Source: Escherichia virus TH58. From it: a stretch of 64,000 bases of DNA. Below are positions 3,796-63,889 of the stretch, in pieces. The translations under genes and the position numbers were made by a program. The DNA lies in sequence record MT446423.1; one strand, written 5' to 3'. The stretch's first letter is position 1. Each line of letters opens with the position of its first letter. Below the pieces are notes generated by a model that was not told the origin of the DNA, did no database searches, and saw nothing but the letters and a program-made list of their open reading frames with translations.

Positions 3796-5364
3796 TTAAA
3801 TTCCTTTAACGTAGACGCGTCTAAAGTAAGCGTTCTTACCAAGGCTGTTCAGGATAGACGGCATACCGGACTGGATGCGAGCACCTGGAGCCTGCAGGGA
3901 ACTTTCAGCAAACGGGTTAACACCGATACCGTAACGAGTTTTAAAGCCCATTACCGGCTGGAAGTTCTTAGGATCGGAACCACGCAGTGGGGTAAGTGCA
4001 ACGTAAGGAGCATAGTAAATACCTGCATCCATTTCGTTAGCGCCTTTGTAACCAACGGTGAAGTAATCCTGTTTAGCATACTGGTCGATGTATACGCGGT
4101 ATTTACCGCCAAGTACACCGGCAAATACAGACTTAGTAGTGTCGGTATTAAAACCAGAAGCCAGACCCTGTGCAGCATAAGAAATACCAGTATCAACTGA
4201 AGCCAGTACGTTAACTACGTTACGGGAAGCGATAATGAAGTTACCTTCACCACGACCGGTTTGACGAGCAATTTCAACTGCTTCTTTATCAATCTGGAAC
4301 AACAGAGCTTTAAAGCTTTCACCGGCCCAACGAGCACCACGGATATCAATCGGGTCCTGGAAGTCAAATACACCAGCTTTAGAACCAACGATATTAGTCA
4401 TACCAGATTTACCAACCTGAGCGGAGTAGTTAATCCAGTCAACAACTTCACGGTTGATTTCCAGCATAATTTCAGTAGCAAGAATACCACTCAGTTCAGC
4501 ATCAGCATCCATACCGTGTACTGCACGGAGGTCTTGTGCCAATTCGATAGAGTAAGCTGCTTTCAGCTGACGAGATTTAGCTTCAATAACTTGTTTGTCG
4601 ATACGGAAGCCCATTTCGTTCCACGGGTTGTCGGTAGAACCATTGAAGCCTTCCTGAAGTTCAGCGATAGAAGTAGCCATACCTTCAGCGATTTCTACCA
4701 GTGCACCAGCTTCCATTTGTTTCTTAATTTCAGCGTCTAATTTAGTTGCATCGGTAGCGCCAGCATCAATTGTTACTACAGCGGAAGCTTGTAGATACAC
4801 AGTACCAGTGTCCTGGAAGAAGTGAGTATAGATATCACCTACAACGGTTTGTGTGCTATCAGCCAGAAGTGGGAATTTCTTAGCAGCACCCTGACCAGAG
4901 AACATCGCGTCCGGAGCATACATCGGATGGAAAGCTTCTTTAGCGTCAGCAGCGATAGGGTCTTTACCATATACTGCACGGAGAGCAAATACCTGACCGG
5001 TAGGGCTGTTCATAGGCTGAACACCACAAATATCAAAAGCGATCAGATTAGGAATAGCACGACGAACCATACCCATAACTGCTGGCCCAATTTGGGTTAC
5101 TGCACCAGAGGTTTGACCTGCTGCGATGTTCTGAGCATTATAACCATGGTCCCCACCAATTTCAGCTTCGGTCAAGAAAGAACCAAATGCCTGAGCGATT
5201 TTCTCGTCTTTATATTCAGGGGATACTTCGAAATCTTTTTCCTGGTTTTCGAAGATTTTAGCGATAATAGCCTGCTTGCTATTAGCGATTTCCGGCAGGC
5301 CTTCACCTTCCAGCAGTTCTTTCCATTTGTCTACGAGCTGAGCTTTAGTTTTGATAGTAGTCAT
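3796..5364 (-). CDS. 23: major capsid protein gp23
   Basis: 522 aa; N-terminus MTTIKTKAQLVDKWKELLEGEGLPEIANSKQAIIAKIFENQEKDFEVSPEY matches T4 gp23. Confidence 0.95.
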   Translation of the reverse strand: MTTIKTKAQLVDKWKELLEGEGLPEIANSKQAIIAKIFENQEKDFEVSPEYKDEKIAQAFGSFLTEAEIGGDHGYNAQNIAAGQTSGAVTQIGPAVMGMVRRAIPNLIAFDICGVQPMNSPTGQVFALRAVYGKDPIAADAKEAFHPMYAPDAMFSGQGAAKKFPLLADSTQTVVGDIYTHFFQDTGTVYLQASAVVTIDAGATDATKLDAEIKKQMEAGALVEIAEGMATSIAELQEGFNGSTDNPWNEMGFRIDKQVIEAKSRQLKAAYSIELAQDLRAVHGMDADAELSGILATEIMLEINREVVDWINYSAQVGKSGMTNIVGSKAGVFDFQDPIDIRGARWAGESFKALLFQIDKEAVEIARQTGRGEGNFIIASRNVVNVLASVDTGISYAAQGLASGFNTDTTKSVFAGVLGGKYRVYIDQYAKQDYFTVGYKGANEMDAGIYYAPYVALTPLRGSDPKNFQPVMGFKTRYGIGVNPFAESSLQAPGARIQSGMPSILNSLGKNAYFRRVYVKGI

Positions 5365-37695: not shown

Positions 37696-37769
37696 GGCCC
37701 TGTAGCTCAATGGTTAGCAGCAGTCCCCTCATAAGGGAAAGGTTACCAGTTCGAATCTGGTCTGGGCCA
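37696..37769 (+). tRNA. tRNA with anticodon CAU (Met or Ile2)
   Basis: Acceptor GGCCCTG/CTGGGCC, T-arm ACCAG-TTCGAAT-CTGGT, anticodon loop CTCATAA; no encoded CCA; D-arm non-canonical. Confidence 0.6.
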
Positions 37770-37775
37770 TATATT

Positions 37776-37852
<77 letters not shown>

Positions 37853-56520: not shown

Positions 56521-56994
56521 ATGATTATCAATGAAAACTCTTGGCACTTTAAAATTTATGCCGCGTTCAATAGTACATGGAATCGCCCTAAAACATTATG
56601 TGCTTATTTTTGGAAAACGTTAATCCCGGTATTGTCTGTTTCAATTATCGGATTTGCGATTTTAGCAGCAGTAACAATCATTGGCCAGGAAATTTTAACT
56701 AAATTCTTTGTTTTTAGCAGTCTATGGACATTAGTTCCAGCCTCAATTGGCGTAGGCATTTTAATGACATCGGTCATGGCTTTTATTTCTGCCGGGTTGA
56801 TAATTGGTCCGTCTTGGTTGTTAGACAAATATAACGACAGAAAATATTATAAAGAAATTGAGTTCATTGCGAAAAACCAAGAACGAATTAAAAATGGACT
56901 TGAGCCTATTGAACGTAAGAAATCATTAATAGGTGAATACCTTAAAGCTCGTAAAGAAAAAGTCTGTCCTACTCTTGAATATAAGGCTAAATGA
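56521..56994 (+). CDS. membrane protein
   Basis: 157 aa with three predicted TM segments. Confidence 0.45.
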   Translation: MIINENSWHFKIYAAFNSTWNRPKTLCAYFWKTLIPVLSVSIIGFAILAAVTIIGQEILTKFFVFSSLWTLVPASIGVGILMTSVMAFISAGLIIGPSWLLDKYNDRKYYKEIEFIAKNQERIKNGLEPIERKKSLIGEYLKARKEKVCPTLEYKAK

Positions 56995-58004
56995 TGAAAA
57001 CAATTGTGAAAACTTATTTTGGTAGCCACCTTTATGGAACGTCTACCCCAGAATCTGACGTCGATTTTAAAGAAATTTATGTCCCTCATGCTCGTGATAT
57101 CTTGACCGGTAACGTTAAAGAACACATGAGCAAGAACACGAATAACACATCTTCTAAGAACACAAAAGACGACGTGGACCATGAGTTGTATAGTCTCAAA
57201 TATTTCTTTAAACTAGCTGCTGAAGGCGAAACCGTTGCTCTGGACATGATTCACACACCGGCTGAAATGGTGGTTAAATCTGATTTACCTGATGTATGGA
57301 AATTTATCCAAGACAATCGTTCACGCTTCTATACAACTAACATGAAAGCCTATTTAGGGTACGTCCGTAAGCAAGCTTCTAAATATGGTGTTAAGGGTTC
57401 TCGTCTGGCTGCTCTGCGTGGTGTACTGGCTATCGTTAACCAGATTCCTGAACAATGGGTTGATTATCAAGAAGGAATCCCTGATAGACTTCGTCGTACT
57501 AAAGTAGAAGATATCAAACACAGACTCCCTGAAAACGAGTTCTGTGAATGGGTATTCCATAACCATGAGAAAACAGGCCCACAAACGTTCTATACTGTTC
57601 TCGGACGTAAGTACCAAACAACGTTATCAATTACAGAGCTCAAGCAATCTCTGAATAAGCTTGATGCTGAATATGGTGAACGTGCTCGTAAGGCAGAAGC
57701 TAACGAAGGTATTGACTGGAAAGCATTGAGTCATGCATGTCGTGGTGGACTTCAACTATTAGAAATTTACAAAACCGGCGACCTGGTTTACCCACTTCAG
57801 GATGCTCCATTTATTCTCGATGTTAAGCTTGGTAAACATACGTTTAAAACTGTACAAGAATTCCTAGAAGATATCGTTGACCAAGTTGAACATGCGTCAG
57901 AACAAGCTGCCAAGAATGGTATGCAGCAAAAAGTAGATATGAGTTTCTGGGATGACTTCCTTGAACAAGTTTACTTAGAAAACCACAATTCGTACTATAA
58001 ATGA
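56991..58004 (+). CDS. Pol-beta superfamily nucleotidyltransferase
   Basis: 337 aa; N-terminal motif YFGSHLYGTSTPESDVDF (GS-x10-DxD). Confidence 0.6.
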   Translation: MMKTIVKTYFGSHLYGTSTPESDVDFKEIYVPHARDILTGNVKEHMSKNTNNTSSKNTKDDVDHELYSLKYFFKLAAEGETVALDMIHTPAEMVVKSDLPDVWKFIQDNRSRFYTTNMKAYLGYVRKQASKYGVKGSRLAALRGVLAIVNQIPEQWVDYQEGIPDRLRRTKVEDIKHRLPENEFCEWVFHNHEKTGPQTFYTVLGRKYQTTLSITELKQSLNKLDAEYGERARKAEANEGIDWKALSHACRGGLQLLEIYKTGDLVYPLQDAPFILDVKLGKHTFKTVQEFLEDIVDQVEHASEQAAKNGMQQKVDMSFWDDFLEQVYLENHNSYYK

Positions 58005-58007
58005 TAA

Positions 58008-58024
58008 GGGCCTTCGGGCCCTTT
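58008..58024 (+). terminator. hairpin GGGCC-TTCG-GGCCC plus TTT
   Basis: Stem-loop directly after the nucleotidyltransferase stop. Confidence 0.5.
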
Positions 58025-58051
58025 AGGGGGTCAAAATATTTTTAAAAAGTA

Positions 58052-58081
58052 GTGTACATGCTTTTAGGATATGTTATTATA
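58052..58081 (+). promoter_or_regulatory. early promoter cassette (GTGTAC ... TGTTATTATA)
   Basis: Family member upstream of the AAA+ gene. Confidence 0.5.
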
Positions 58082-58118
58082 GACCTATCGAAACGAAATG
58101 AGTAAATTGGAGAATAAA

Positions 58119-59237: not shown

Positions 59238-59525
59238 ATGGATTTTATGCAAAAAATTAAAGCCGCAGTCGAACTGTATGCTCATCGTATGGTTAGTTCT
59301 ACGATGCAATATAGCGAGGATGTTCGCCAGGACTCTTCCTTGAAAGGAAAAACTAAAGCCTTAATTACCTTAGATCGTTTGCAAAAGAATGCCATAGAGA
59401 TGCTCCAGTACGACAAGGATGCATATAAGAAAGAACAGGAAGAGAAACTTAAATCTGAAAAATTACAGAAAATTCCGAAATCGGTTTGGTTCAGTGGAAA
59501 AAATACCGAAAAAAGTTTCTTTTAG
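59238..59525 (+). CDS. hypothetical protein
   Basis: 95-aa lysine-rich ORF with AAGAGG RBS. Confidence 0.4.
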   Translation: MDFMQKIKAAVELYAHRMVSSTMQYSEDVRQDSSLKGKTKALITLDRLQKNAIEMLQYDKDAYKKEQEEKLKSEKLQKIPKSVWFSGKNTEKSFF

Positions 59526-59527
59526 TT

Positions 59528-59557
59528 GTTTACAAGGTCTATGGTTATGTTATTATA
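59528..59557 (+). promoter_or_regulatory. early promoter cassette (GTTTAC ... TGTTATTATA)
   Basis: Family member; GGAGG RBS follows. Confidence 0.5.
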
Positions 59558-59583
59558 GACCTATCAACTACTGGAGGTAAAAC

Positions 59584-60112
59584 ATGAACGCTAAAGATAT
59601 TTTCAACCTGGTAAATTATAACGACGGTAAATTTAAATCTGAAGCACAAAGCAAGTTCTTTAACGACGTTGCTTATGGTAACGAGATTACCGTGGACGGA
59701 GGTCAGATTTTCAAATCTCGCTGGAATTGGATTGCTATCATCGATTCAGTTGGAATTGTGGAAGTCTACAAAAACACTAGCAAAAAAACGTACATTATTC
59801 TGGTCTCGTGAAACTAACGAGCAGTACAAAAAGGATAAAGCATCTCGTTTATCCAAAGTAACCCAGGAAGATATCGAGTTTATCAAGAAAGATATCGAGA
59901 TGTACGAAAATTTAATCGCTGAAGACCAGGCAGTACTCGATAAGTTTGATGAAATTAAAGCTTCTCGTGAAATCCCTGACTTCATGAAAGAAACAGTAAA
60001 CGAACGATACGCTCTCACTTCAGAACGTATTGCAAACTATACAAAACAGAAAGCAGAACGTATTAGTACTCTTCGGAAATTTGAAGAACGTTTAAAGACG
60101 GTTCACGCATAA
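59584..60112 (+). pseudogene. early ORF split between two frames at an A7 tract
   Basis: Frame 1 (59584-59811) has the RBS and start; frame 2 is open from 59669 to 60112 without its own RBS; A7 at 59782-59788. Confidence 0.4.
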
Positions 60113-60115
60113 ACG

Positions 60116-60139
60116 CTTTACCCAAGGACGGGTTATAAT
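60116..60139 (+). promoter_or_regulatory. possible early promoter (CTTTAC ... TATAAT, short spacer)
   Basis: Truncated relative of the 61171 and 62163 promoters. Confidence 0.3.
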
Positions 60140-60174
60140 GGTTTTGAGTTCCAATTCAATCTGAGGAAATAGTT

Positions 60175-61170
60175 ATGAGCATTACATCTGATGCGGTAAA
60201 ACATGAAATTAACGGTTTATGTGCTTCACAGATTAAAGTGTGGTTTAAAGACCATAATGATCGCAGAGCACTTAATTATGAGCAAATTGCTATCCAAGTT
60301 CATCAATTACTGACTAGTAAATTTGATTTTCATATGCCATCTGAAATCTATACTAATCTACCGCGAGCGCTTATTAAAGCGTGTAAAGGTTACGGAAAAT
60401 CAATGGCCGATGGAATCTTCAGCGCGCTGAATAAACTTAACGTTCTATCGATGATTAACTCTAACAACATCCTGCGTAATCTAGGACGTACTGATTTGTT
60501 CGGTCGTGAACAGTGTAAAATGCCTTTGAAATGGATTGTTGCTCATCTTAACGAGAACCAAACACGTTTTCTGGCCGTATCAGCACGCTTACAAATGGGC
60601 CTAGATCGTCAGATGAACTTTAAAACTCATCCACGTTATTCAGGTTCAACAGACTTTTATAAATGTGAGCTTCAAAAGGTTGCAGGTAAAACTGTCTTAG
60701 TAGTTCGTGTAACGTTTGAAGGACGACGTCAAGGATATTTTGACCTAATCGGCTCCGGTCTTAAACATTGTGGATTTATTGTCGAAGTTGATATCAAGCG
60801 AGACGGCATTGGATACCGTATTGGATATGTTTGTACTCTTAAAGAAGAGATTTCAGGACCAGCACCAGGACTAAAAGACGTTAGATATAAAGACGAGCTC
60901 GTTGAAGAAATAAAAGAAGTTGAATATGATATCAACCAAGAAGATGCTCTTAAAGACCTTATTGATGAACTAAACCAAGACGTTATTCCGGTTCAGAAAT
61001 TTGAATCAAAACATGCTGAGCAAATCAAATACTTTGAAGCTTTGATTAACGAACTTAATGTAACTATTCAACAGACTGACGACGAAATCTCACGATTAGC
61101 AGGCTTAAACGGTAAAAATAAAACAGAACGAGCTAATCTTATTCAAGTAGTAAAACTTCTTAAGGAATGA
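60175..61170 (+). CDS. hypothetical protein with C-terminal coiled coil
   Basis: 331-aa ORF. Confidence 0.45.
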   Translation: MSITSDAVKHEINGLCASQIKVWFKDHNDRRALNYEQIAIQVHQLLTSKFDFHMPSEIYTNLPRALIKACKGYGKSMADGIFSALNKLNVLSMINSNNILRNLGRTDLFGREQCKMPLKWIVAHLNENQTRFLAVSARLQMGLDRQMNFKTHPRYSGSTDFYKCELQKVAGKTVLVVRVTFEGRRQGYFDLIGSGLKHCGFIVEVDIKRDGIGYRIGYVCTLKEEISGPAPGLKDVRYKDELVEEIKEVEYDINQEDALKDLIDELNQDVIPVQKFESKHAEQIKYFEALINELNVTIQQTDDEISRLAGLNGKNKTERANLIQVVKLLKE

Positions 61171-61199
61171 TGTACAACCAAGGATGGTTGGAGTATAAT
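61171..61199 (+). promoter_or_regulatory. early promoter (TGTACA-N17-TATAAT) with CAACCA / TGGTTG inverted repeat
   Basis: Near-identical to the 62163 promoter. Confidence 0.45.
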
Positions 61200-61225
61200 A
61201 AATTTTTCAACATGAGGAATATAAA

Positions 61226-62158
61226 ATGGCTTCTATTACACGTAGAGAACTTATCAAAGAATTTACCTCGAACGCATATACCCCAGGTCCTAATCCTATC
61301 CGTATGCCTGTAAAGACTCCTGAAGAGATTGAGGAAGTCTGTTCATATTATGGGATTACTTCTCGTAAGTTTACTCAATTTGAATGCGTTACTAACACAC
61401 CCGTTAAAGAGTTCATTAAAAATGGTGAGTTCAGCCGTTTATTAGCCAAACAGAAACTTCGTAATTTTTGTATCGGCGGCTACGGACAATATTTTGCTAA
61501 ACAGTTCAGAAATAACCTTAACAATCTGATGGCCATTGCTTCTCGTATTCGTCCTCAAGCAATTAACATGAAACATTTGAAATATACTTACGATAAGTTA
61601 GAAATCATGGTTATCAGTGAGAATGAGTTCACTCTTACGTATAAACCTAAGAATGATAACGTTGCTCGTGTATTCCACCAAGCGTTGGAAGTTTTAGGTG
61701 ATAATATCCACCAGATTAAAGCAATTTATTCTCGTGAGCTTAATATTATCGACCCTATCAAGAATAAGGGCCATATCGCTATCCAGGCTCGTGTATCTGT
61801 TGGTAAAAAGGTTCCTGCTCCATGGTGGCACAAAGACTCTGAATACTATCAAAATCTTAAAAAGGAAAATGCAACGTTCGAAGCGTCAATTATTGTTGCC
61901 CCAACTATCGGTAAGATTAATGCAGCTTCAGCACAACCTGTTATGTTTAATGGCACGCCGTCGACTAAACTGGAAATCTCTAATGGTCTTCTTCCTGCCG
62001 AAGATTACTATTATAATCAAATCAAAGCCACTGTGGACCAACTGTCTGTTGAACTTGACAAAGCACAAGCTAAACTTCGTGATGCTCAACAAGTAGTTAC
62101 CAAGCTCCAGTTGCAGTACTCTAAACTTTTTACCGCAATGAATGCGTTAAAATCATAA
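61226..62158 (+). CDS. hypothetical protein with C-terminal coiled coil
   Basis: 310-aa ORF. Confidence 0.45.
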   Translation: MASITRRELIKEFTSNAYTPGPNPIRMPVKTPEEIEEVCSYYGITSRKFTQFECVTNTPVKEFIKNGEFSRLLAKQKLRNFCIGGYGQYFAKQFRNNLNNLMAIASRIRPQAINMKHLKYTYDKLEIMVISENEFTLTYKPKNDNVARVFHQALEVLGDNIHQIKAIYSRELNIIDPIKNKGHIAIQARVSVGKKVPAPWWHKDSEYYQNLKKENATFEASIIVAPTIGKINAASAQPVMFNGTPSTKLEISNGLLPAEDYYYNQIKATVDQLSVELDKAQAKLRDAQQVVTKLQLQYSKLFTAMNALKS

Positions 62159-62162
62159 ATCA

Positions 62163-62192
62163 GTTTACAACCAAGGATGGTTGGAGTATAAT
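62163..62192 (+). promoter_or_regulatory. early promoter (GTTTACA-N17-TATAAT) with CAACCA / TGGTTG inverted repeat
   Basis: Consensus -35 and -10 with 17-nt spacer. Confidence 0.55.
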
Positions 62193-62220
62193 CTTTCTAT
62201 CTTAACGAGAGGAAAATATT

Positions 62221-63171
62221 ATGACACGTTCACATTACATTGATTATTTTGCAGGTCTTATCGCTAACGTTCATGCCCAACGTGCTTCTGGTTCATTAGG
62301 ATTTGATGTTCCACACCGAGTTGTAGTAAGTGGTATTCTTCGCGATTTTTGTACATACACAGGCCAAGAAAATCATATCTGTAAAGATACTCAGAATGCG
62401 TATTCTCATTCATTAGGGACACTGCTTCAATGGTTCAAACGTTCTCGTTTATTATCTTCTACTGTAGCTCGCGATAACATTAAAAACTTTATGAAGCCTA
62501 GCTTTATTAAATCTGTGACATCTAAAACCGATTTGGTTGAATTCACTATTGTTAATGATGTTAAAAAGACTCATTTGGCTGATTGGTTATCTACCATTCC
62601 TGAAACTAAATTCGCTGATAAATTTGCTTGTGAATTCAATAACCAAGTGAATATGCTTTTTAAACATTCTCGTAAATTATTCACTGGCGGTGATGGCCGT
62701 ACAAATAAAGTTCATGTTAAAGATTGGGTTACTGCAGTATTCAAACCAACTGGTAATGGTAACGCATCATTGTCAATTGATATCCAGGTTCCTTATTACT
62801 ACTCACGTAATCTCGGTACCATGAAAGCCGAAGAAATTAATAAGCACAACAAAACCGTTCGTTCGCTGTCTTATAAACTTCGTATGATGTTACAGACTAT
62901 GGATGTTGTTGAAATGTTCAGCGAAACCGAAGATAACGGTTCAATGTTATTCAGTTCTCGTATTCAAATTAAGCTGAAGAACCCTAACGAGTATAAGCCT
63001 AAGCCTATTAAAGAGCCTAAAGCAGAAAAAGTTGATAACTTAAGAGAAGAACGCGAATATCTCAAATCTCGTCTGAAAGAAGTCGAAGCCCAGATTGCAG
63101 AACAAACTAAATCATTAAAAGCTCTGAATGCAAAAGCTGATGGTTTACGAAATGCCATTGAGGTGTTATAA
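62221..63171 (+). CDS. hypothetical protein with C-terminal coiled coil
   Basis: 316-aa ORF. Confidence 0.45.
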   Translation: MTRSHYIDYFAGLIANVHAQRASGSLGFDVPHRVVVSGILRDFCTYTGQENHICKDTQNAYSHSLGTLLQWFKRSRLLSSTVARDNIKNFMKPSFIKSVTSKTDLVEFTIVNDVKKTHLADWLSTIPETKFADKFACEFNNQVNMLFKHSRKLFTGGDGRTNKVHVKDWVTAVFKPTGNGNASLSIDIQVPYYYSRNLGTMKAEEINKHNKTVRSLSYKLRMMLQTMDVVEMFSETEDNGSMLFSSRIQIKLKNPNEYKPKPIKEPKAEKVDNLREEREYLKSRLKEVEAQIAEQTKSLKALNAKADGLRNAIEVL

Positions 63172-63476
63172 TGAAACTACGTCTTTTAGAGGATATTGAC
63201 ATGAGCACTAATCACAGCTTGGTTAAGTTTATTGACTATAGTTCAAAGATTGAATTTGTTCAGCGAGATAAAATCCACGGTGAAGAAGAGTTCGTTCCTC
63301 CGGCATGGAACGAAATAATGAAAATGGTTGAACGACGTGAAAATGCTGCCAAATCGGCAGCAAAACATCCATGTCCGGAATGTGGAACTATCCAAGTCCA
63401 ACTGGTTAACTGGACCACTGATAACTTGAAATTGAAATGCCGTAAATGCTTCCACAAATTTGAGAGAACATTATAA
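63171..63476 (+). CDS. zinc-ribbon protein
   Basis: 101 aa; CPECG...CRKC four-cysteine motif. Confidence 0.45.
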   Translation: MKLRLLEDIDMSTNHSLVKFIDYSSKIEFVQRDKIHGEEEFVPPAWNEIMKMVERRENAAKSAAKHPCPECGTIQVQLVNWTTDNLKLKCRKCFHKFERTL

Positions 63477-63889
63477 TGAGATATAGCCTTCGTTGTTTTA
63501 TTGCAGCTTTAGTTTTTGCCATAATTCCATTCATTTGGAATAGCCAGAATACTTACATGGAAACTAAAGTAATTCCTGTGGAGGTAGTGGAATTAATCTC
63601 AGGCCAATCTACAGGAAAATATTCTAAATTAGAATTTATTGCCGTCTATAAAGATGAGCAAGGACGAGTTTTTGACAGGCATGTATCACCGTCGTTTTAT
63701 ACGCTTCTGAATAAAGGTGATACGATAGCTATAGAAATTCGTGAGATGGATATCAAACAAACTACTAAAGATAACTTGATTTGGTTCTTTGGTACAGTGT
63801 TGTTGGTTTCTATCTGTATCACAGGTTTTATTACATGTATTGTATTTGGCGTTGCATATTTAATCGATGAAAGGAAAAATAATGTTTAA
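63476..63889 (+). CDS. membrane protein
   Basis: 137 aa with N- and C-terminal TM helices. Confidence 0.45.
   Translation: MRYSLRCFIAALVFAIIPFIWNSQNTYMETKVIPVEVVELISGQSTGKYSKLEFIAVYKDEQGRVFDRHVSPSFYTLLNKGDTIAIEIREMDIKQTTKDNLIWFFGTVLLVSICITGFITCIVFGVAYLIDERKNNV

Follow-up and report, generated by a model that had tools for sequence, protein, structure and literature searches.

The subject of this analysis is a run of three consecutive genes, together with the short elements between them, at positions 60,116 to 63,171 of a 64,000-nucleotide stretch of DNA from Escherichia virus TH58 (MT446423.1); the whole stretch is called the window below. A preliminary description, made from the letters of the DNA alone, had reported three open reading frames (ORFs) on the same strand at 60175, 61226 and 62221. 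These are indeed present with the sizes claimed, encoding proteins of 331 residues (60175..61170), 310 residues (61226..62158) and 316 residues (62221..63171), all on the plus strand and each preceded by a GAGG-type ribosome-binding site. At the DNA level the 3-kb region shares 97.7% identity with Shigella phage phi25-307, which is a Mosigvirus, and about 96-97% with many further Mosigvirus coliphages of the RB69/JS09 type; by these identities the source is a T4-like phage of the genus Mosigvirus. The genes belong to a block of early, non-essential genes that precedes nrdC (glutaredoxin; start at 63883), and the gene order of the locus is that of RB32, VR7 and VR5.

Database comparisons assign each gene to a family. 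The first ORF encodes a protein that is 32% identical to nrdC.6 of phage RB32 (BLASTP, 5e-35), matches phrog_2257 over residues 1-331 (1.1e-126) and carries PF26899 as a precomputed annotation label. Records annotated as nrdC.6 were recovered by tblastn, and the gene occupies the orthologous position after nrdC.8. The second protein matches the Pfam model DUF7235 over profile positions 1-307 (2.2e-111, 372.6 bits with a cut-off of 30). The same model is matched by the NrdC.5 protein of RB32 and the T4 group (2e-122, 408.7 bits). The second protein also matches phrog_2351 and is 23% identical to RB32 nrdC.5 (BLASTP, 1.6e-10), its RB69 orthologue carries the name NrdC.5, and its gene is found in the nrdC.8-to-nrdC locus downstream of nrdC.6, as in the DUF7235/NrdC.5 relatives. 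With T4 NrdC.5 it shares the position between nrdC.6 and nrdC.4/nrdC.3 as well as the protein layout, including a heptad tail, but it is 30 residues shorter. The third protein is 55% identical to RB32 nrdC.3 (2e-118) and 24% identical to nrdC.4 (3e-6); it matches phrog_1435 (2.1e-105), which contains both nrdC.3 and nrdC.4, and has PF26897 as a precomputed label. Judged by these matches, the three ORFs are orthologues of the T4-group genes nrdC.6, nrdC.5 and nrdC.3, and the ORF at 62221 is also a paralogue of T4 nrdC.4. The earlier statement that the proteins have no recognisable motifs cannot be maintained in view of the DUF7235 and PHROG matches and the two Pfam labels. The genes belong to catalogued, already known, but almost uncharacterised T-even families. 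Order and strand agree with T4 nrdC.6, nrdC.4 and nrdC.3, whereas the number of large paralogues differs: there are three in the window and four in T4, nrdC.4 being absent, as is nrdC.1.

Outside these families the searches returned little. Word-indexed protein searches gave close relatives only (19, 4 and 33 matches), and an exhaustive phmmer search of 1.84 billion representatives with the nrdC.5 homologue as query yielded 2 matches, which makes this an extremely narrow family. Because these routes gave no deep alignments, family profiles were built from phage loci. A sequence search of the PDB found no match for the proteins, and thus no solved relative, and the NCBIfam search gave nothing useful. 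Structure prediction followed by Foldseek, proposed as a check in the preliminary description, did produce the long terminal helices discussed below, but Foldseek against BFVD gave significant matches to orthologues only and no known fold. A thioredoxin function, as stated in many records, was considered and rejected, there being no thioredoxin-fold match. Many GenBank records label the homologues of nrdC.2 to nrdC.11 as 'thioredoxin', although none of them has a thioredoxin match, and one recent paper treats nrdC.8 as a nucleotide reductase. The thioredoxin label has propagated from locus names that begin with nrdC, and we flag it as a widespread annotation error for the proteins of this locus.

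Pairwise BLAST among the three window proteins detects no similarity. More sensitive profile-profile comparisons were done with hhalign on family alignments that contained the window proteins, the proteins returned by the searches, and those from the loci of RB32, ACG-C40, Pinarejo, VR7, VR5, UPEC01, Manna and ESCO47. The nrdC.4 and nrdC.3 families match each other with 97.9% probability (P 3e-13) over about 230 columns of the globular body. The nrdC.5 family matches a merged nrdC.3+4 profile with 94.1% probability (P 1.3e-7) over 158 body columns. For nrdC.6, the comparison with a merged nrdC.3+4+5 profile gives 69.8% probability in the body core (score 42), which rises to 92.4% (P 5e-7, score 54.6) when the members from Citrobacter phage Moon (gp089) and Klebsiella phage Lion_ER11 (CDS0207) are added. 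These two proteins are syntenic, and each matches the merged profile with about 91% probability. Column-shuffled profiles reach scores of at most 27 and 20.4, against the real 42 and 54.6 (30 shuffles for the latter comparison), reversed profiles score 15-18, and the unrelated neighbours used as controls, the nrdC.10 homologue and Lion CDS0208, give P > 0.1.

All these matches fall in the body and not in the tail. The common core consists of two helices, with the pattern (F/L)xKxxxLSxxxAxxxL(R/K)NF, then an insert of variable length, then F(R/N)xNxxxxLxxAxRL-xxGDxR. In the nrdC.6 homologue it covers residues 74-149 (60394..60621, plus strand) and reads as a helix ALNKLxxLSxINxxxILRN, a variable insert and NQxRxLAxxARL-xxGxDxQ. 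In the nrdC.5 homologue it covers residues 57-111 (61394..61558, plus strand), with FSRLLAKQKLRNF followed by FAKQFRNNLNNLMAIASRI. In the nrdC.3 homologue it covers residues 62-164 (62404..62712, plus strand), with FKRSRLLSSTVARDNIKNF, an insert with one strand and then FACEFNNQVNMLFKHSRKL-xGGDGR, and the AlphaFold2 (AF2) model has helices at 65-88 and 128-149. The AF2 models of the nrdC.5 and nrdC.3 homologues have the same order of elements, namely helices, three strands, a helix, two strands, a disordered linker and a terminal helix. When their secondary-structure strings are aligned, 62% of the columns agree, against 26-57% in circular-shift controls. The layout shared by the three proteins is a set of N-terminal helices with the core, a predicted beta-beta-beta-alpha-beta-beta arrangement, a variable linker of low confidence and a heptad tail of 40-55 residues.

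These comparisons join nrdC.3, nrdC.4, nrdC.5 and nrdC.6, together with the Moon and Lion_ER11 members, into one superfamily in which the bodies are, by their profiles, homologous though very divergent. Databases keep them as three or four separate families, and their unification is a result of the present analysis. The superfamily was met only in Tevenvirinae and in the two more distant relatives just named. The suggestion that the three proteins form a family is thus borne out by the profile matches. The suggestion that their N-terminal regions are different globular domains is not, because the regions that BLAST fails to relate are homologous at the profile level, with probabilities of 92-98%. 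Since the matches lie in the bodies, the three genes are diverged tandem paralogues and not unrelated domains to which a common tail is attached. The array is better described as the product of old tandem duplications that diverged strongly, and fastest in the body, than as a set of shuffled domains.

The C-terminal coiled coil that had been proposed for each protein was examined with a scoring scheme of our own (28-residue windows, 200 shuffles) and not with COILS or Marcoil. In 3/3 proteins the best heptad windows are at the C-terminus (p <= 0.005 against shuffles), spanning about residues 278-311 in the nrdC.6 homologue, 258-310 in the nrdC.5 homologue and 270-316 in the nrdC.3 homologue, with regular a/d heptads over 5-7 repeats. 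The tails as a whole can be delimited at residues 278-331 (61006..61167, p = 0.000), 257-310 (61994..62155, p = 0.005) and 273-316 (63037..63168, p = 0.000), respectively, all on the plus strand. The two proteins that were modelled end in a single long helix, at 257-309 in the nrdC.5 homologue, whose model is poor and scores best in this helix, and at 275-315 in the nrdC.3 homologue, where the predicted local distance difference test (pLDDT) values are 76-84. Weak Pfam matches in the tails are to coiled-coil families only. The coiled-coil proposal is in agreement with all of this.

Conservation is higher in the tail than in the body in all four families, a contrast that the present analysis adds. 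For nrdC.6 the identities across genera (T4, VR7 and VR5 groups) are 52-59% in the tail and 29-33% in the body, and within Mosigvirus they are 95% and 65%. The corresponding values are 73-84% and 55-77% for nrdC.3, 59-65% and 40-48% for nrdC.4, and 25-42% and 23-30% for nrdC.5. Paired tail and body values are, for example, 59% and 33% for nrdC.6, 73% and 55% for nrdC.3, and 42% and 25% for nrdC.5. In all families the C-terminus lies at most a few residues from an L-x-x-A-(I/L)-x-x-L-K-like motif, examples being LRNAIEVL(K), LNNALNALN, LEQALQLIK and LIQVVKLLKE. The end pattern was defined after the sequences had been seen, so that its counts are descriptive: among the 81 window ORFs of at least 100 residues it occurs in two of these proteins only, and it occurs in 2/7600 shuffled tails. 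The nrdC.6 tail is interrupted by a conserved Gly-rich break, RLAGLNGKNK, at about residues 311-317, and may form a helical hairpin instead of one continuous coil. The preliminary description of a modular family with a shared tail and a diversified N-terminus is therefore correct as far as the tail is concerned, which is the best conserved part, but the bodies have diversified from a common ancestor and are not different domains.

The genes are separated by short intergenic elements. An exact repeat of 27 nucleotides, TACAACCAAGGATGGTTGGAGTATAAT, occurs at 61173-61199, ahead of the nrdC.5 homologue, and at 62166-62192, ahead of the nrdC.3 homologue; dinucleotide-shuffled sequences gave 0 matches. 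Both copies read as TGTACA/TTTACA-N17-TATAAT, in agreement with the earlier statement that two of the genes are preceded by a near-identical promoter. Copy 1 (61171..61199, plus strand) matches 10/12 positions in a promoter scan, with -35 TGTACA at 61171-61176, a hairpin CAACCA-AGGA-TGGTTG at 61175-61190, GGAG at 61190-61193 and -10 TATAAT at 61194-61199. Copy 2 (62164..62192, plus strand) matches 11/12 positions and is the best promoter match in the 55-64 kb part of the window; its -35 TTTACA is at 62164-62169, the hairpin at 62168-62183, GGAG at 62183-62186 and the -10 at 62187-62192. The equivalent T4 element lies ahead of nrdC.4 in record U76612.1, reads TTTACT ttgCCACAaggaTGTGG TATAAT and is annotated as early promoter 50.0 (P_E 50.0), which the repeated element matches. 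The element after the nrdC.8 homologue and before the first of the three genes (60117..60139, plus strand) is of a shorter form, TTTACC-N11-TATAAT, whose 11-nucleotide spacer holds a hairpin ACCC-AAGGAC-GGGT. It was not returned by the promoter scan and by its spacing is not a canonical sigma-70 promoter. Loci of Tequatro-, Gapriver- and Dhakavirus also have this short form, with a spacer of 10-11 nucleotides, after nrdC.8. Because this element lacks promoter spacing, the claim that each gene has its own promoter applies to the second and third gene only. The first gene, the nrdC.6 homologue, would probably be read from the promoter upstream of nrdC.8 (59529-59556).

Intergenic sequences of the locus in four genera have the common pattern TTTAC(N)-stem-AGGA-stem-(GGAG)-TATAAT. 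The stems vary with their complementarity kept (ACCA/TGGT, TCCA/TGGA, GCCA/TGGC, CCACA/TGTGG, TACCA/TGGTA and ACCC/GGGT). In 10 distinct instances from these genera, which were collected by eye and are phylogenetically related and hence not independent, 88% of the cells are paired against 66% in shuffles, and the covariation score is 0.53 against 0.13, a value reached in 0/500 shuffles; slid controls give at most 40%. These features show the two long elements, as predicted from sequence, to be sigma-70 T-even early promoters with a 17-nucleotide spacer that contains a small hairpin with a conserved AGGA loop. They fall in the class of early promoter-stem-loop cassettes (PeSLs) that occur in the hyperplastic regions of T4-type phages and mediate gene shuffling (Arbiol et al. 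2010, PMC2839356; Comeau et al. 2014, PMC4122927). The promoter type was already known, and the covariation support for its hairpin is what is added here. As in described PeSLs, the elements are intergenic in a hyperplastic region, carry a T4/PST-type promoter (TTTACW-N17-TAYWAT) that is strong and sigma-70-like and has the stem-loop between -35 and -10, and are followed by a Shine-Dalgarno sequence and a start codon. However, the stem NCCA-AGGA-TGGN differs from the G-run/C-run motifs of RB49/phi1 and from the AGNA-loop-TCNT motif of the PST/T4 pair, and the copy before the first gene is without promoter spacing. The predicted hairpin is also weak (-6.9 kcal/mol, z -0.5 to -1.5, so that the energy alone is not significant) and has no U-tract, for which reason a terminator function is doubtful.

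A further resemblance to PeSLs is that the two identical copies flank a gene, the nrdC.5 homologue, that is present or absent among close relatives. Mosigvirus ESCO47 does not have this gene and has one element between nrdC.6 and nrdC.3, which is chimeric, its left half being that of window copy 1 and its right half that of copy 2. This is a clean natural example of the loss of a PeSL-flanked cassette, the flanked gene being a probable counter-defence gene. About 152-156 phage records have close homologues of nrdC.6 and nrdC.3, but only 132 have the nrdC.5 homologue. Phages of the T4 group have four large paralogues; the window phage, VR7, VR5 and UPEC01 have three, ESCO47 and Manna two, and Moon and Lion_ER11 one. 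In ACG-C40 (4730-5140 of locus L003) a deletion extends from inside nrdC.5 to inside nrdC.3 and leaves 71 nrdC.5 codons followed by an unannotated nrdC.3 tail fragment, and in Pinarejo (4936-5149 of locus L004) nrdC.6 is lost except for the last ~45 codons. These remnants indicate that the large paralogues are dispensable in nature. Salmonella phage Manna (5001-6038 of locus L006) has an in-frame chimera of nrdC.6 residues 1-269 with the linker and tail of nrdC.4, joined at a 10-nucleotide microhomology, TGATGAAATT, with nrdC.5 and most of nrdC.4 deleted.

What these proteins do is suggested by one member of the superfamily. A T4 deletion mutant is unable to infect E. coli ECOR17 owing to the SIR2-domain defence protein Dsr1, and cells that carry dsr1 can again be infected when nrdC.5 alone is expressed (Srikant, Guegler and Laub, eLife 2022, PMC9391042). 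According to a 2026 preprint the tetratricopeptide repeat (TPR) sensor of Dsr1 recognises the phage major capsid protein (PMC12803255). Just downstream of nrdC, gp49.2 of phage T6 inhibits the OLD defence (PMC13096335). Early expression, dispensability, rapid evolution of the bodies, variable copy number and the genetic neighbourhood all argue for a counter-defence reading, and we infer that counter-defence by direct binding is the best-supported function of the family. On balance, it is fairly probable that the region is a hyperplastic early locus of nrdC type, in which diverged tandem paralogues with PeSL promoters serve a counter-defence role. The proteins would be made in the first minutes of infection and would inhibit host defence proteins by binding to them. 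Target specificity would come from the fast-evolving body, and the slowly evolving tail would make the protein oligomeric, probably dimeric, or dock it to a shared partner. For NrdC.5 the likeliest mode would be that the sensor domain of Dsr1 is blocked before the capsid protein appears. This follows the example of DSAD1, the SPbeta-phage inhibitor of the SIR2 NADase DSR2 that occupies the sensor domain of its target (PMC10981675, PMC10973363). The two cases are functional analogues only: in both, a sensor-fused SIR2 NADase is neutralised by a protein of a phage. No relation in sequence or fold was detected between DSAD1 and NrdC.5, the phage group and the target are different, and that NrdC.5 binds in the manner of DSAD1 is assumed by analogy.

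If the family reading is correct, the NrdC.5-Dsr1 phenotype becomes a lead for three more uncharacterised T-even gene families, and the lead extends to relatives in Mosigvirus, Gaprivervirus, Dhakavirus, Moonvirus and Klebsiella phages. It also suggests a simple dissection of the conserved tail against the variable body. No new kind of system is revealed. A bolder form of the proposal holds that the superfamily is a dedicated, expandable counter-defence array with a common scaffold, in which the tails drive the formation of dimers or hetero-oligomers, each paralogue blocks a different sensor, and the hairpin promoters are portable recombination joints. Candidate targets would then be Dsr1 variants and other proteins with a TPR sensor of the Avs7/Dsr1 type, and at the promoters with their hairpins whole paralogues could be acquired, lost or recombined in the form of cassettes. 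We put this forward tentatively and regard it as rather doubtful.

A number of points weigh against the counter-defence reading and the family on which it is built. The experimental anchor is the genetics of T4 NrdC.5 only, with none for nrdC.3, nrdC.4 or nrdC.6. Since the window nrdC.5 homologue is only 23-25% identical to T4 NrdC.5, and anti-Dsr1 activity is known for the T4 protein only, conservation of this activity is uncertain. The profiles of the merged families are dependent on how MAFFT aligned sequences that diverge strongly, and the shared fold is deduced from profiles and secondary structure while the models are poor, with mean pLDDT values of 40.8 and 61.9 from shallow alignments. 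Tail-only profile comparisons gave a best P of about 0.001, where an unrelated heptad tail gave 0.003, and are thus no better than the controls. Because tail-only profiles are inseparable from such a tail, sequence-level proof of tail homology is not claimed; common ancestry of the tails, resting on position and the post-hoc end motif, is plausible but not proven. The weakness of the promoter hairpin and the relatedness of its 10 instances count on the same side.

For the tail, the main alternative is that it does not homo-oligomerise but acts as a docking helix for a shared partner (a protein of the host, a second early protein of the phage or, in hetero-oligomers, the tails of the other paralogues), or packs on its own body. 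The constraint on the tail is indeed above what a generic zipper would need, as the nrdC.6 values within Mosigvirus illustrate, and the similar ending in all families, the Gly-rich break that suggests a helical hairpin in nrdC.6 and the co-expression of three to four paralogues from one locus would fit docking as well. However, the regular a/d heptads over 5-7 repeats and the AF2 picture of a single extended helix detached from the body are rather those of a coiled coil, and no partner protein is known. We consider docking to be a possibility of modest weight, with odds clearly below even.

Many T4 early non-essential genes have roles in host takeover. The proteins could therefore be early takeover or regulatory factors acting on host transcription, the nucleoid or metabolism, in which case the Dsr1 phenotype would be indirect or specific to one paralogue. 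It is consistent with this that a single genetic result on one paralogue links the family to defence, and that no similarity to known anti-defence proteins was found by sequence or fold. On the other hand, the genes of this hyperplastic region vary in copy number from one to four, are often lost, form chimeras and have bodies that evolve fast, which is a typical arms-race pattern, and the neighbouring genes include proven counter-defence functions. A takeover role seems unlikely on this evidence, to about the same degree as a docking tail.

The intergenic elements, read above as promoters, could instead act mainly in RNA and less as promoters or recombination sites, as a hairpin at the 3' end of the mRNA combined with a RegB/S1 site at which polycistronic early transcripts are cut. 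The GGAG that is fused to the -10 hexamer (61190-61199 and 62183-62192) gives GGAGUAUAAUA as RNA, which agrees with 9/11 positions of the RegB/S1 consensus GGAGRAYARAA, and GGAG is present in 6/8 long-form elements from four genera. The stems co-vary around an invariant AGGA loop, and the short form after nrdC.8 keeps the hairpin without the promoter spacing, which would also suit a function in RNA. In contrast, the -35 and -10 hexamers with 17-nucleotide spacing are near consensus, the T4 equivalent is annotated as an early promoter and has no GGAG, and the hairpin is weak and without a U-tract. A mainly RNA-level function is therefore quite unlikely, though the two roles are not mutually exclusive.

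Least probable, and in our view very unlikely, is the model of the preliminary description, in which unrelated globular N-terminal domains were fused by shuffling to a common, exchangeable coiled-coil module: the missing BLAST similarity, the better conservation of the tails, the nrdC.6-body/nrdC.4-tail chimera of Manna at its microhomology and the tail remnants that outlast the deletions in ACG-C40 and Pinarejo would all fit it, but the profile matches sit in the body and not in the tail, two independently modelled members have the same order of secondary structure, all members are of similar length with a colinear layout, and the Manna junction represents a single deletion between neighbouring paralogues and not a recurrent exchange of modules. 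The preliminary description was thus largely correct in what it observed and half right in how it interpreted it.

Some further observations concern the promoters and neighbouring genes. A scan of IMG/VR with the promoter core returned 78 loci, mostly chance matches with stems of 2-3 bp, and about a dozen that are T-even-like. A different element, atcttctatatagcCAAGGATGGCTTTGGTATAAT, with a 5-bp AGCCA/TGGCT stem and the same AGGA loop, recurs in at least 10 unrelated-looking viral contigs of IMG/VR (L013, L028, L032, L041, L049, L050, L072, L080, L082 and L086). In the window, a second related promoter pair is found at 58033-58089 and 59509-59565, 74% identical over 57 nucleotides (TGTACA/TTTACA...GTTATTATAGACCTATC). 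The pair lies ahead of the nrdC.10 and nrdC.8 homologues; its T4 counterparts are early promoter 54.4 and the one that the annotation places before nrdC.8. At 58006-58032 there is a bidirectional terminator hairpin rich in GC. An Rfam search of the window matched two adjacent tRNA genes only, at 37696-37849 on the plus strand.

The two ORFs that follow the nrdC.3 homologue correspond, by BLASTP against RB32, to nrdC.2 and then to a displaced nrdC.7. The latter (63476-63889) encodes a membrane-type protein of 137 residues with 42% identity to RB32 nrdC.7. In the window it comes after nrdC.2 and directly before nrdC, whereas in T4 it is located between nrdC.8 and nrdC.6. The nrdC.8 homologue (59584-60112) is broken into two overlapping ORFs of 75 and 147 residues by one added A, in a run at about 59781-59787 that is A7 here and A6 in phi25-307, whose intact ORF has 175 residues; the broken frame reflects a sequencing error or else a pseudogene of recent origin. 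In VR7, VR5 and UPEC01, 71-residue ORFs before nrdC.5 were considered as split-off N-termini and rejected, as they are unrelated small hydrophobic proteins. This hydrophobic ORF is conserved between nrdC.6 and nrdC.5 (L005 5674-5889, L008 3374-3589 and L009 4302-4517) and overlaps the start of nrdC.5. The homologue of the nrdC.11 nucleotidyltransferase (56991-58004) is 96% identical to that of HX01 and about 90% identical to the Tequatrovirus versions, but only about 80% identical to those of most other Mosigviruses, a pattern that suggests mosaic exchange in this part of the genome.

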